A program made the translations under genes and the position numbers. A DNA stretch of 64,000 nucleotides, from the NCBI GenBank assembly GCA_964016885.1, contig OZ024741.1, positions 314,898,001-314,962,000 on the forward strand. Direction: 5' to 3'. This stretch comes from Eledone cirrhosa (Eukaryota). The notes beneath the pieces were generated by a model. That model searched no databases. It worked only from the letters and a program-made list of their open reading frames with translations, and was not told the origin of the DNA. Positions 561 through 56,699 of the stretch are shown here, piece after piece; position 1 is the first letter of the stretch, and each line of letters begins with the position of its first letter.

Positions 561-695
561 AATGCCCAGTAGGAAAGTTTGGTTTATTTTGTCATGGGAT
601 ATGCCATTGTATGCACAACTATTTCTGTGACAAGAGATATGGATATTGTTTAAGTGGATGTGCTGCAGGTTATTTTGGTCGCAACTGCCAAGAAG
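561..695 (+). CDS. EGF-like repeat exon 1 (type A) of a MEGF10/SCARF-like multi-EGF membrane protein
   Basis: ATATTTTCAG acceptor, G|GTATTT donor, 135 nt, phase 1-1; (E)CPVGKFGLFCHGICHCMHNYFCDKRYGYCLSGCAAGYFGRNCQE, 8 Cys in MEGF-type spacing. Confidence 0.93.
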
Positions 696-1097
696 GTATT
701 TCCTAAAGATGCTAAGTATTTATTTGAGAACGCAAATATCGTATATATATATATGTTTGTGTGTGTGTGTGTGTGTGTGTGTGTGTGTGTGTTTGTGTAC
801 TTGTGTGTAAGTATGGCTATATATATATATATATATATATATATATATATATATATTTATATGTGTGTATGTGTGTGTATGTGTATAAATGTGTGTATGT
901 ATATATATATATATATATATGTATGTGTGTATGTATATGTGTGTGTGCGTGTGTGTGTGTGCATGTATGTTTATCTACTTTTATATTTATTATTTTTCCT
1001 TTACTTCTTCCTTTTCCAGCCTCACTTTCATATATATTATATTATATATTATATTTTTGTTTTTAAAATCCACTGTCAATAAATATACCAGGATTTT

Positions 1098-1156
1098 TTC
1101 ATTCTGATGACTGAAAGCAAATTTTGTTTGCTTTCAAGAAACCACTGGTAAATGAA
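1098..1156 (+). ncRNA. Type I hammerhead ribozyme motif
   Basis: ttcatt-CTGATGA-c tgaaagcaaa/tttgctttca a-GAAA-ccactgg-TA-aatgaa: stem I 6 bp, stem II 10 bp, GUA site. Confidence 0.82.
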
Positions 1157-1920
1157 TTAATTATTTGATGTTGTTTATTACATAACTAATAAGCTCTGTA
1201 ACCTACATAGAACACTCTTTTTTCCTGGAACTTTCCGACGGAATTAATTCTTTTATATATATATATATATATATAATAAGAGAATGCGAAGTAGTTTCAG
1301 ATTTTAAAGTCCTTTAAGGGTGTGATACATATTTCAATGACGACAGAGGCCACCCGCTTCTGTGTACCAAGTGCCGTGACATCATCTGATAGCGTATACA
1401 TAATAAGGTTATGTTCCCGAGGCAATCCAAATTAAATCGACAAGGGAACGGACACAGCGGGGGTTCTTGAATCCTTCGACCGATCCCGTGTGTCTAAATT
1501 CACCCCACCGTTTTCCGCAGGCGCAAGTCCGAAGGAAGTTGAACATCCACTATCCCAAAACCCTACGAAACTCGCCTAGGCATGTCCCCTCACACCACAA
1601 CGAAATAATCTCCCATCCAGGTCGGTAATATGAGACGGTTATAGTTTACTTCTAGTCGCCCAGCCAGTGGCAGTTGAACGAAACCTAGTGGTGGTGGCAG
1701 AGTATGAGTTACAATAGACCTCGATTCTGCCCCTAAATTATGCTTGGACAATATAATTGACCATCACCCGCTAAGAGAATATAAACTTAATTCTAGATTT
1801 TATGATTTCACAGTTGAAATTATGATAAAAAATTAGAAATTAAAAAATTACAAGCTAAATTCTTAAATTGAAGTAAATAAATAAAAAATGTTTTTTTAAA
1901 TATACATATATAGATAAATG

Positions 1921-2100
1921 TGGCACAATGTGGCACAATGCCAGCAATTACACAGTGCATTACTGGTATTTTATTTTATCGACTCCGTAAGGATGAAAGG
2001 CAACGTTAAGCTCGACGGGATTTGAACTCAGAATGGCCGTAACTCTATGCGTCAAAGCATGGGGGTACGGCCTTCTACCGATACTGCCAACCCTCCGCCA
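1921..2100 (-). mobile_element. SINE copy (further copies at about 11783-11956, 13083-13255, 18740-18926, 25115-25252, 27722-27912)
   Basis: Same family as 40999-41179; most copies were carried along with the exon duplications. Confidence 0.85.
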
Positions 2101-4856
2101 TATATGTATATATATATATATATATATATATATATAATAACTAATAATTATAAATAGGGAGATGTTTAAATTATAGTAAGAAGTTTTGAAAGGGGGAACA
2201 TATTACAGATATATTAGCGATTTATTGAACGATAGTACCGTACAGCAGAACGGAGGGTAAATTATAGTATGAAAAGTAGTAATTAGGAAAATAATTAGTT
2301 AATAACTTCTTCTATCACATGAATGAAAACAAAACAAAAAGTACAGAGATGCAAAATGAGTGAGGAGACATTTATGAGAAAATATATACGAGGAAGATAA
2401 ACTGAGAAAGGTTCCATCTCAGCGTACTCAATAGGTAATGTAAAATACACTCCCAGAGTATACATATAGTTATTCGCTTCAATAAAACACACGTAAACGG
2501 GTTACTATAGTAGTTCCCAAATTCGAGTTTCTGCCACACTTAATGCAGCAGTAAGGTGCATTGCACCCCCTGTCCGCATATATTTTGCAACAATGCATAA
2601 TCGGGGAATATGGCTTCATCAGCAGTTTTCGCCTAATCAATAATCAATCGATTTGACCGAATTCGACTCCAGTCCGTGCAGGCTATGACTGCTTGTGACG
2701 GCCAAAACAGTAAAGTGATTAGCAACTGGAATCTGAGAGAATGCTGTACCCCGATATGTATATATATATATATTTATATATATATATTTGCGTTTGATTT
2801 CTTTCCGTTCCTACACAAGATTCATGGCCATAGGTAAAGGCTGGTACAAGAAAATCAAATTGAAGAATACGAGTTTGGCTTTTATACCTACCTCCCTTCT
2901 TCTCATCTTGGGATGCTGAAGTTGGCGCAATGTATATATATATAGAGAGAGAGGTAATACCTCCGCAGCGTGGAAAGTTTAACTAGCCCAAGGGTGTATA
3001 ACAGTGGGGATGAGGTATTCCTTTAAATCTTCATCAACACTAATTTACTCCGCCTCCCGACACACCCAAATCTCTTTTATATAAAGTCACAGATCACAAC
3101 ACAACCTGAGATGAGTTTGACAATCCCTAACCGACGAATGCAAGAAAATTGTCTAGGAAATTTAATCAGGAATCTTTCAAATTCTCCCCACCAAAGTTAA
3201 CAAAGAATTTACTAGATCTACAAAACCAAATTGTAAAATTATGATATTATGAAAAAAAGAGGATTCTTTAGAACTACAGGTGAAGACATTCTTTTCCTTT
3301 CTTTCAATATGGCCAACTGTACCAAGGATGTATATATATATATATATATATATATATATATATATATATATATATAAGGTAAAAATCAATTAAGCTAGTC
3401 CGGAGGAGACAAAGGTGGTTAGTTACGCAGATTACTAGCCATTATAGAGAGGTTTGTGTGGTCAATGCATATAAGTTGTTAGACTAGCGAGCCATGCAAT
3501 TAAATGTAAAGAGAGATAGCTTAATAGTCGGAATTTCGTAGTGAAGAGACTAATTAACATTCAAATGCACAAATACACACACACACATGAAAACATACAC
3601 ACGCACACGCACACACACGCACACACACACACGTGCTTATTTGTTGTCGTTAAATGTAAGAATATCAGTGATAAATAATGCAGACACCGATAAGTAGTGT
3701 AAAAGTTGTAATATTTTTTTGTGTAATTTAGCAGCTTATATTGATTATTACCTCCATATCAACATCATCCTCATCATCGTTCATTGCCCATCTTCCACGC
3801 TAGAATGGGTAAGATAGGCTATGCCATTGTGAGTGATCAACTTGGGATCCGTGATTCGCTCACATAGAATTCATTTTGGCTTGGTTTCTATGGATGGTTT
3901 CCCATCCTTACGACAAACACATTTACAGTGTGTACTGGGTGCATTTAGCTGTGTCGCCTTCATTCTGTGTCGCCTACATCCTGTGTCGCCTACATTCTGT
4001 GTCGCCTACTTTCTAGTATTGCCTGTGTGCTTCTTGTCGTGTCGCGTACACAACCACTTTACAGTGTGGACTGGGCGCTCGCTTTTGTCATGACACCTAC
4101 ATGACCACAATTGAGTGGGCTGCGCTCTTTAGGCGTGGCTTCCGGGGGATCACTTTATAGAGAAGGTTGAAATTGTGAAGATGCTTGGGGAAATTGGGGA
4201 CGTCATAAGTATAGGGGAGGTTTATGGGATGGTTGGGAGTGTTGTTGCCTACTAGGTATATGCCTGAGCCCGAGAATAATAGAAGTTGAGTTTTCTGTAA
4301 TACATCATAGCACGATAGGTCACAGTCCTGTGTCATCGCCTTAATAGAGCAAAGTCAGCTTTATTACCACATCTCAAGTCTTCCTAGACCGTCCTCCTTA
4401 TGTACTTGCCTATCTAGTTGCAGCGTTGCTGACCTACCAAGATAGGGAAACTCTGAAAAATAACTGCGGCTTCTGAACCTGCAGGTTCGTCGGACACTTG
4501 CAATAATTTTGGATCATATTTTCCCACTGTGGTGTTAGCGTCAAAAAACATCTTCCTCGCTTGTCCTGCTGTTGGCCGTTGTTTTTCTACGTCATCATAA
4601 ATTCTGGCCAATAGTAGTTGTCAGACTGGCCATCGGCTGTCCCTCTGCCTGGCCCGACGCACTTCAATGAATTCATGCTGGGTTTGGTATTTCACAAGTC
4701 CACTCGCGGTCTAACACACACATATACACATATATGTGTATATATATATATATATATATATATGTATATATATATATATATATATATATATATATATATA
4801 TATATAAAATATAAATATATGAAAAATGGCGTGCTCCGTGATTGCAAATGGGTTAC

Positions 4857-55500: not shown

Positions 55501-55844
55501 TGTTTACGACTGCCTTCTCAAACACCCTTATCTTACAACCTCACCATTTTCTGAGTGTATATATATATATGTGTGTGTGTGTGTGTGTACGTGAGTGTGT
55601 GTGTATGTATACTTTAATTCCTCCGGACCTTCATCATCATCAACACTCATTAACACCACACGCCACGCCACACCCCAGACACATCAAAATCTCTCTTATA
55701 TATAGTCACACATTTCAACACAACCTGATCTCAGTTTGACAATCGCCACAGACAGACGAATGCGGGAATGTTCTCCAATCCAACTTAACCAGGATTCTCT
55801 AAAATTCTTCCCACCGAAGTTAACAAAGAACTTACTGGATCTAC

Positions 55845-56055
55845 TATTGGTTAGTATTCAGTTTTGCTTTTAAGTTTTACCGGTTGCGCATTTCTAATGC
55901 TTTCCAAAAATAATTTTGAGATAGAGCGCCCATGATGTTTGCTCTAATCTGATTAGAGCAAACATCACGAGCGCTTTATCTCAAAATTATTTTCGAAAAG
56001 CATTAGAAATGCGCAACCGGTAAAACTTAAAACCGAAACTGAATACTAACCAATA
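55845..56055. mobile_element. Hairpin MITE flanked by TA
   Basis: About 105-bp near-perfect inverted arms with a 1-nt loop; TA at both ends (Tc1/mariner-type TSD). Confidence 0.75.
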
Positions 56056-56211
56056 CTTTTACTAATTTTTACTTATTCCTAATTAAACTATTTTTCACTG
56101 GGAACAATTTGTCAGCATTTTCTTTTCCTTTTACTAATATATCATAACTCATGTGTTACACCTCTATTCTTTTAAATATATATATATATATAATATTTTA
56201 CCTTTGAACAG

Positions 56212-56305
56212 AAACACACGGACTCAAACCCGCTTACATGGCGACGATTTTGGTGTTCTTACTTTTCCTGTTAATATCATCTGTGGTTGCACTAGTCATT
56301 TACGG
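56212..56305 (+). CDS. Transmembrane exon of the multi-EGF gene
   Basis: TTTTACCTTTGAACAG acceptor, GG|GTATGT donor; phase-1 entry matches the EGF exons; (E)THGLKPAYMATILVFLLFLLISSVVALVIY(G) contains an uninterrupted hydrophobic run of more than 20 aa. Confidence 0.8.
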
Positions 56306-56593
56306 GTATGTGATTTCTTGTATCAATACAATTGTTATAAGTAATTGGTGAATTTCAATCTGTCTGATGTTTAGATTTAGAGTCAATAAAATTGTATTTT
56401 TATATTTGTATATTGTGTCATTGACCTCCGTATGTTTCAGCGATGAGTTTTCAATATGAAAACTTATTTTCCCAGTTAGGTTGTCGGTGAATATTAATGA
56501 CCAGGTATAATATTAAATGTACTAATTGCAGTGGTTTCACTAATTATTGCCTCATAATTTGACCAGGAGATTTAAAAATTTTCTTTTTGACAG

Positions 56594-56699
56594 AAACATA
56601 GTGATTGTGTTTGATAGGCTAAAACAATTTTTGCCTTCATGTTATTTGAATAGAGATACACCAGGCATAATGTTGGAAACTGTAAAGTATTACATCTAG
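56594..56699 (+). CDS. Candidate terminal (cytoplasmic tail) exon
   Basis: Pyrimidine-rich acceptor TTTTCTTTTTGACAG; open in the phase-2 frame required by the TM exon: (G)NIVIVFDRLKQFLPSCYLNRDTPGIMLETVKYYI*; the other two frames stop within 7 codons. Confidence 0.5.

Follow-up and report, generated by a model that had tools for sequence, protein, structure and literature searches.

The 64,000-nucleotide stretch of DNA analysed here (the window, on contig C2) covers the middle of one gene out of about 37 related, octopus-type genes. We hold it fairly probable that these genes form a young cluster encoding predicted type-I proteins, that they descend from a receptor phosphatase through loss of its lectin and phosphatase exons, and that they serve as variable, non-catalytic recognition or decoy receptors.

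The original prediction had proposed a type-I receptor made of symmetric EGF exons, and the gene bore this out, with the signal exon, the EGF exons and the transmembrane (TM) exon in one open frame (Table 1). The seven EGF exons of the window, predicted to be phase 1/1 with eight cysteines each, were all bounded by AG and GT, free of stops and fixed in their cysteine spacing. The exact exon pattern was matched seven times on the + strand, not at all on the - strand, and in none of 100 shuffles. Position 1 had been placed within a duplication unit, and positions 1-742 were 96% identical to 16978-17720. With the Pfam profile for the laminin-type EGF domain (PF00053), two of the seven single exons matched at E ~0.02, under the Pfam cut-off; exon and profile are out of register, profile positions 1-33 aligning to exon residues 14-44. 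The introns are very long and filled with transposons. A decayed half exon had been overlooked, tblastx of the spacers was dominated by microsatellite matches, a phage search gave no match, and Val-rich upstream 'exons' were rejected as antisense LINE pieces.

Table 1 Features of the gene (window positions, unless given for contig C2).
Feature	Position	Strand	Description
Signal-peptide exon	C2:314,785,045-108		upstream of window
EGF exon 1	C2:314,865,026		upstream of window
EGF exon 2	C2:314,877,632		upstream of window
EGF exon 3	C2:314,887,086		upstream of window
EGF exon 4 of 10	561..695	+	135 nt, phase 1/1, 8 Cys
EGF exon 5	12226..12360	+	135 nt, phase 1/1, 8 Cys
EGF exon 6	17539..17673	+	135 nt, phase 1/1, 8 Cys
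EGF exon 7	24274..24408	+	135 nt, phase 1/1, 8 Cys
EGF exon 8	26862..26996	+	135 nt, phase 1/1, 8 Cys
Decayed 3' half of EGF exon	~34932..35000	+	usable splice sites not found
EGF exon 9	35231..35365	+	135 nt, phase 1/1, 8 Cys
EGF exon 10	46856..46987	+	132 nt, phase 1/1, 8 Cys
TM exon	56212..56305	+	94 nt, phase 1 to 2, helix without charged residue
Originally predicted tail	56594..56700	+	probably intron
Likely tail exon	C2:314,974,513-314,975,014 (+76513)		12.5 kb downstream of window, 167 charged residues

The array had been expected to continue upstream, and three further EGF exons and a signal-peptide exon were located there, all outside the window; the signal peptide was assigned by eye. 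The resulting 13-exon model comprises 2007 nt and 668 aa with 80 Cys, zero internal stops and GT-AG at every internal junction, and since all ten EGF exons are phase 1/1, the array is frame-compatible for skipping. The EGF exons use the donors GTATTTC and GTATATC, off the GTAAGT consensus, and the signal exon uses GTAAGA. No conserved coding exon was found between the signal exon and the first EGF exon.

The predicted phase-1 TM exon was likewise recovered, with a best 19-residue hydropathy of 3.06, and TM exons were intact in all 28 paralogs examined. The suggestion of an adaptor-dependent receptor fared less well. Adaptor-coupled receptors of the DAP12/FcR-gamma type carry a charged residue inside the TM helix. 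Such a residue is absent here: 27 of the 28 paralogs, this gene among the 27, have no K, R, D or E in the final 21 residues encoded by their TM exon.

The family of about 37 paralogs falls into two clusters, with 16 of the 37 TM places at C2:310.4-315.3 Mb, 20 at C10:25.9-27.3 Mb and one on C1149. Signal-exon matches numbered 40 of 56 candidates (40 scored), and 83 of the 97 EGF-exon matches within 1.02 Mb were clean. The number of repeats differs widely from paralog to paralog; a neighbouring paralog of 920 kb at C2:313.09-314.01 Mb may hold at least 84 EGF exons, if it is one gene. One copy of the signal exon is broken.

Among the eight closest EGF exons, pN was 0.161 against a pS of 0.086, an excess with modest codon-bootstrap support (P 0.030-0.061), and deep introns differed at 0.074-0.093. 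The estimated omega of the EGF exons was 1.95 (p 0.017). Comparison of M2a with M1a gave 2dlnL values of 24.0 for the ten exons, 17.1 for the seven window exons and 56.4 for a C10 paralog, using our own implementation of the codon models on a fixed tree, and gene conversion can inflate such site tests. Four-fold sites differed at 0.126 (39/310), and because this is close to the whole-exon value of 0.139, the neutral baseline is uncertain. Outside the cysteines, the exons differ from one another at about 20% of nonsynonymous sites, and all 80 cysteines are intact. The signal peptide had no amino-acid excess (pN 0.070 vs pS 0.088); in the TM exon pN was 0.377 against a pS of 0.226 (bootstrap P 0.002). 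Such rapid change of a TM exon is unexpected under a plain ligand-binding arms race. Diversifying selection is seldom seen on a TM helix, and it suggests that partners are chosen within the membrane.

The nearest proteins were Octopus F5/8C-EGF-TM-PTP proteins (P0001, P0002 and P0009 among them), with at most 66% identity per module. A lectin-EGF receptor tyrosine phosphatase gene lies on the same contig at C2:257.5 Mb; its TM flank matches that of our gene at 71% (E 9e-6), and the region of the tail acceptor matches at 74% over 138 nt (E 1e-19). The phosphatase gene opens its first juxtamembrane exon with KKRRS, where the tail of our gene has KKRRT, and its EGF exons have the same symmetric phase and similar donors. 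No lectin or phosphatase match was found in 624 kb around the gene, the lectin queries being four lectin exons from the same genome, and no phosphatase match occurred on C2:310-316 Mb. Genome searches placed the lectin (F5/8 type C) exons elsewhere, and none lay in the 4.8-kb first intron of a paralog. The likely ancestor of the family is a lectin-EGF receptor phosphatase, from which the lectin and phosphatase exons would have dropped out.

A short tail had been predicted at 56594-56700. Its frame is open, but among the 16 paralogs readable at this site (12 of 28 were unreadable) the dinucleotide was AG in only two, AC in 13 and AA in one, so this tail is probably wrong. The idea that it is an insertion missing from an upstream paralog was rejected, as C10 paralogs show a deletion in that upstream paralog. 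The exon at +76513, numbered from the start of the window, is the likely post-TM exon by sequence comparison: its acceptor is retained in the same frame in 11 of 15 C2 loci and is homologous to that of the phosphatase gene's juxtamembrane exon. Seven more tandem copies of its start reach as far as 314,989,441. A second acceptor at +76392, 121 nt before it, would lead to a stop directly after the helix in this gene and to a tail of 8-9 residues in most C2 paralogs, and it alone was found as a tail acceptor among the 15 loci read on C10. The protein-database search with the tail returned zero matches, low-complexity sequence making this a weak test. Tails are frameshifted in several paralogs.

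A signal peptide, ten EGF modules of eight cysteines each, a single TM helix and a charged low-complexity tail make up the predicted protein. We infer that the modules would form a disulfide-held rod whose non-Cys positions touch a fast-changing ligand, which could be a parasite, a microbe or cells of another individual; both the ligand and the tissue are proposed by analogy with snails and oysters only. Diversity would arise mainly in the germ line, by exon and gene duplication followed by diversifying selection. Exon skipping probably happens and would shorten the rod, no programmed repertoire being required. Having no catalytic domain, the protein might compete or pair with its phosphatase-bearing relatives.

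A receptor with a short tail or none, in which the TM exon is joined to 56594 for a 35-aa tail, continues past its own donor for 15 aa or is joined to +76392 for an immediate stop, seems distinctly unlikely to us. The DNA permits all three frames, and the +76392 site has the support from C2 and C10 loci described above; the scarcity of the 56594 acceptor and the in-frame, phosphatase-like acceptor at +76513 speak against it. Less credible still is the view that the array is a dead or decaying duplicate or was created by misassembly. Transposon-filled introns, the broken signal-exon copy, the decayed exon and the frameshifted paralog tails would fit decay, but every cysteine and splice site has survived despite the non-Cys divergence, and the exons are all different and therefore not collapsed copies.

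Programmed splicing is a somewhat stronger rival, though we doubt it. Cells would splice subsets of the ten exons (up to 1024), perhaps onto one of six tail starts, yielding a Dscam-like repertoire. The shared phase of the ten exons allows this, but exon duplication itself requires symmetric phase, and the phosphatase gene has it too; the EGF-exon donors, off consensus where the signal exon's is not, also have counterparts there. By laminin-EGF disulfide pairing and the Pfam register, all four disulfides would sit within one exon. The 200 nt upstream of each EGF exon diverge less than deeper sequence (0.037 vs 0.074-0.093), yet this conservation is not cassette-specific, because the TM exon also has a conserved flank (0.075 vs 0.265 within the exon). 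For the O. sinensis phosphatase LOC115219456, RefSeq predicts seven isoforms, four of which are short by 43, 43, 88 and 131 residues, equal to 1, 1, 2 and 3 modules; the isoforms are computational predictions for a different gene, most of them almost complete in length, and mapping errors can arise where exons are nearly identical. No more probable is a self/non-self adhesion code in neurons, skin or gametes, with variable TM helices choosing family partners. Variable modules and helices, and a large, clustered family with differing repeat numbers, would suit it, but the fast turnover of genes and tails, by gain and by decay, would better fit host-parasite conflict, and the available text on known mollusc relatives (PMC12297450, PMC13712769, PMC13070813) links them with resistance to parasites or with expression in hemocytes. 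An octopod hypervariable system, in which some 37 phosphatase-less genes splice positively selected cassette exons combinatorially onto acidic or basic tails and variable TM helices settle which partners pair with the ancestral phosphatases, as a Dscam- or protocadherin-like code for identity or immunity made of EGF modules, is also improbable. We retain variable, germ-line-diversified recognition or decoy receptors as the preferred reading.

Human SCARF1 and MEGF10, Draper and CED-1, originally named as reference kin, share the 8-Cys module, but the mollusc lectin-EGF receptor phosphatases are closer. SCARF1 was matched in sequence (8hna, E 0.009) and, in a fold search with an Octopus homolog model, at E 3e-5 behind two Tie2 entries; a single exon was modelled at pLDDT 49.8, and the O. 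sinensis homolog P0066, which is not this gene, at pLDDT 79. MEGF10, Draper and CED-1 have an N-terminal EMI domain and NPxY and YxxL tail motifs. Our gene, in contrast, has no recognisable EMI exon, judged by conserved coding exons upstream of the first EGF exon, and NPxY and YxxL are absent from its 167-residue tail, whose single Tyr lies in neither. SCARF1, MEGF10, Draper and CED-1 are low-copy conserved genes, whereas this gene sits in a fast-evolving cluster. Like Dscam1-type splice-variable receptors, it has a variable exon array compatible in frame. CEACAM-type paired or decoy receptors, in the sources as available, likewise set a signalling receptor among young, fast-evolving paralogs without the signalling part; they have the immunoglobulin fold and belong to vertebrates, and the likeness is one of analogy only.

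With the mollusc F5/8 type C-MEGF receptor phosphatases (subgroup 1C) the gene shares tandem 8-Cys modules of the same type, exon phases, a single homologous TM helix with its flank and the first juxtamembrane acceptor. Unlike them, it lacks the F5/8 type C (galactose-binding) domain and the cytoplasmic tyrosine phosphatase domains, and repeats have enlarged its juxtamembrane exon, which closes with a stop codon. SudRes1 of Biomphalaria sudanica is described in the accessible part of its report as a galactose-binding-MEGF receptor tyrosine phosphatase (PMC12297450). The family shows, at the DNA level, how one receptor phosphatase lineage can give rise to dozens of quickly evolving copies without catalytic function. 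It also allows a direct test of splicing-based diversification of recognition receptors in a cephalopod.

The family is a variant of a mollusc receptor kind already known. No cephalopod description of such receptors was found in the main-text literature; the supplement of PMC13712769 may hold relevant gene models. Snail clusters of the same architecture map to schistosome resistance, as far as the available text goes (PMC13712769, PMC12297450), and such clusters are leading candidates for snail parasite resistance. Like the snail scavenger class F-like receptors (subgroups 1A/1E), the predicted protein has a signal peptide, a Tie2/MEGF-like EGF region, one TM helix and a domain-free cytosolic part, and the genes are clustered in a genome that also holds lectin- and phosphatase-bearing relatives. 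The likeness is one of architecture, and the phosphatase-less state may be separate in origin. Unlike the snail clusters, which are tied to parasite resistance, the present family comprises some 37 genes, in each of which one-module exons can number in the dozens, with a charged repeat tail, and it adds DNA-level kinship to a phosphatase gene and measured diversifying selection.

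Seven exons in the window, six of 135 nt and one of 132 nt, have AG/GT borders, run from phase 1 to phase 1 and each encode eight Cys at constant spacing. This pattern occurred seven times on the forward strand, and never on the reverse strand or in 100 shuffles, which bears out the exon array of the original prediction. The profile scores of single exons all fell under the Pfam cut-offs: the best match was EGF_STAB1-2 (E 0.003), and EGF_laminin matched two of the seven (E ~0.02). A PDB search with the module profile matched 6u11 and human SCARF1, and in a structure search using the predicted model of an Octopus homolog, Tie2 and SCARF1 ranked first. 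We call the gene octopus-type because its nearest proteins come from Octopus.

As had also been predicted, the array extends upstream of the window, by three more EGF exons, and comparison of paralog spacers yielded an intact, predicted signal-peptide exon; the stretch from there to EGF exon 1 contained no conserved coding exon. The resulting 13-exon model (signal exon, ten EGF exons, transmembrane (TM) exon and tail exon) is stop-free and encodes 668 aa with 80 Cys.

Features of the gene and its surroundings (the window is G000:C2:314,898,001-314,962,000 in a genome of 3.0 Gb; positions outside it are counted from genome position 314,898,000 as zero)
Feature	Position	Remarks
Broken signal-exon copy	-129326	
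Predicted signal exon	-112955	intact
Further EGF exons	-32974, -20368, -10914	
Decayed half EGF exon	about 34932-35000	
TM exon	56212-56305	phase 1 to 2
Earlier tail acceptor	+76392	immediate stop
Second tail acceptor	+76513	predicted 167-residue tail
Tail exon region	+76.3 to +98.5 kb	grown to 22 kb of D/S/G/K repeats; 8 exon-start copies
Long inverted repeats	4857-5687, 6857-7852, 14294-14828, 25286-25857, 28063-28499, 60537-61118, 61256-61644, 61658-62283	arms 83-98% identical; probably miniature transposons
Broken Helitron	40012-43029 (-)	PIF1 helicase and Helitron_like_N matches
TTTTAT repeat	48654-49227	97 copies
Tigger/pogo-type DNA transposon remnant	57885-60440	HTH_Tnp_Tc5, DDE_1
Inverted repeat within this remnant	58009-58331	~10 TAACCC units
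45-kb short-repeat array	+273.5 to +319 kb	- strand stop-free frames of up to 8755 codons; either satellite or repeat exon

The short tail originally proposed (56594-56700) was not supported. The acceptor it requires at 56592-56593 is AG in 2 of 16 readable paralogs (AC in 13, AA in one; unreadable in 12 of 28), and a charged repeat exon downstream of the TM exon is a feature of the family; we consider a short-tail form improbable. At the loci on contig C10 this exon opens directly in 15 of 15 cases, for 13-180 codons, and at those on C2, the contig of the gene, a second acceptor ~120 nt further on gives a basic start in a single frame in 11 of 15. The predicted tail of our gene contains a single Tyr and is dominated by D, G, K, E, S and R. 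Its start is present in eight tandem copies. In six of them the acceptor is preserved, followed by open frames of 166, 33, 213, 33, 213 and 152 codons; possible alternative tails would be acidic (152-213 aa) or basic (33 aa). Since the earlier acceptor stops at once, a tail-less form may also exist.

The TM exon with its flanks matched 37 places in the genome (16 at C2:310.4-315.3 Mb, 20 at C10:25.9-27.3 Mb and one on C1149), and TM exons were intact in all 28 examined. The signal exon gave at least 40 matches (40 of 56 candidates scored), and one EGF exon gave 1814 candidates, the best 150 of which were scored. Clean exons made up 83 of 97 EGF hits in the 1.02 Mb examined. With all 80 Cys and all splice sites of the gene intact, a dead array is very improbable, the decayed half exon and broken signal copy notwithstanding. 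Elsewhere on the contig, G000:C2:313,089,000-314,010,500 (+) is possibly one giant paralog, judging from sequence. A signal exon (313.089 Mb) and a TM exon (314.008 Mb) mark its ends, with no further signal or TM match inside (best 40 of 55-56 signal candidates scored); 84 of the 150 listed EGF matches fall at 313.11-313.88 Mb, and each of four 50-kb samples held 7-17 exon matches.

In the eight closest EGF exons, pN was 0.161 vs a pS of 0.086. Divergence was 0.139 in exons, 0.074-0.093 in deep introns and ~0.035 in near-exon introns. In codon models written for this analysis, omega was 1.95 (p 0.017) when all ten exons were used; restricted to the seven window exons, it was 1.93 (p 0.030). 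M2a exceeded M1a by 2dlnL 24.0 and 17.1, respectively, and by 56.4 for a C10 paralog (29 exons), site tests that gene conversion may mislead. However, codon bootstraps of the EGF exons (P 0.030-0.061) and four-fold sites, diverging at 0.126, count against this signal. Cys and most Gly are invariant in the EGF exons. For TM exons, pN was 0.377 vs pS 0.226 (P 0.002), and for signal exons 0.070 vs 0.088 (five distinct sequences).

Database relatives were chiefly mollusc F5/8C-EGF-TM-phosphatase (F5/8C, F5/8 type C lectin domain) and multiple-EGF (MEGF)-like proteins. Searches of the 624 kb surrounding the gene turned up neither lectin nor phosphatase exons, and the C2 phosphatase matches sit away from it, at 232-233, 257.5 and 261.8 Mb. 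The receptor phosphatase gene at C2:257.5 Mb has the TM flank in common with our gene (E 9e-6); at the tail acceptor, the two are 74% identical across 138 nt (E 1e-19). KKRRS opens its first juxtamembrane exon and KKRRT our tail; in paralogs, the phosphatase exon's donor region is still detectable 3' of the tail stop; and a tail-acceptor genome search returned family members first and phosphatase loci next. The agreement of these lines establishes common descent at the level of sequence. Because the phosphatase form is widespread in molluscs, we infer that the direction was loss of parts from it. Lectin-bearing superfamily members lie within and at the edge of the cluster (C2:314.02 Mb (-) and 315.46-315.58 Mb (+)), with no phosphatase match nearby. 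More than 24 near-identical F5/8C-like exons at C20:3.5-5.3 Mb, C27:13.1-15.4 Mb, C23 and C16 are a separate lectin expansion.

Any subset of the ten EGF exons maintains frame and, if laminin-EGF disulfide pairing applies, each exon would carry four whole disulfides. Exon skipping is plausible in this superfamily because four of seven predicted isoforms of the O. sinensis phosphatase LOC115219456 lack 1, 1, 2 or 3 entire modules. The symmetric phase, the weakness of the donors and the conservation of the flanks have counterparts at the TM exon or in the phosphatase gene, and are no proof of regulated choice. A code of splice combinations seems unlikely. We lean towards a variable recognition or decoy receptor. 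Its ten modules would form a disulfide-held rod, as SCARF1 does (PMC11563577), showing rapidly changing residues extracellularly, and it would compete or pair with phosphatase-bearing relatives. Neither a catalytic domain nor a tyrosine motif occurs in the predicted tail. Dependence on an adaptor, suggested originally, is unlikely for the DAP12 type since the TM helix has no charged residue. That the changing residues serve a non-immune adhesion code is likewise unlikely. Some of these readings are mutually compatible.

Literature searches returned no description of a comparable cephalopod family, and the accessible text of PMC9334734 holds nothing further on octopus. From the portions available, SudRes1 contains MEGF phosphatases with EGF loss among haplotypes (PMC12297450), and many draper-like and MEGF transcripts differ among oyster hemocyte subsets (PMC13070813). 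The locus is a real gene whose tail was miscalled, and a new variation on a mollusc receptor type already known: as far as the accessible part of PMC13712769 describes them, snail LG5R subgroups 1A/1E have the same architecture.
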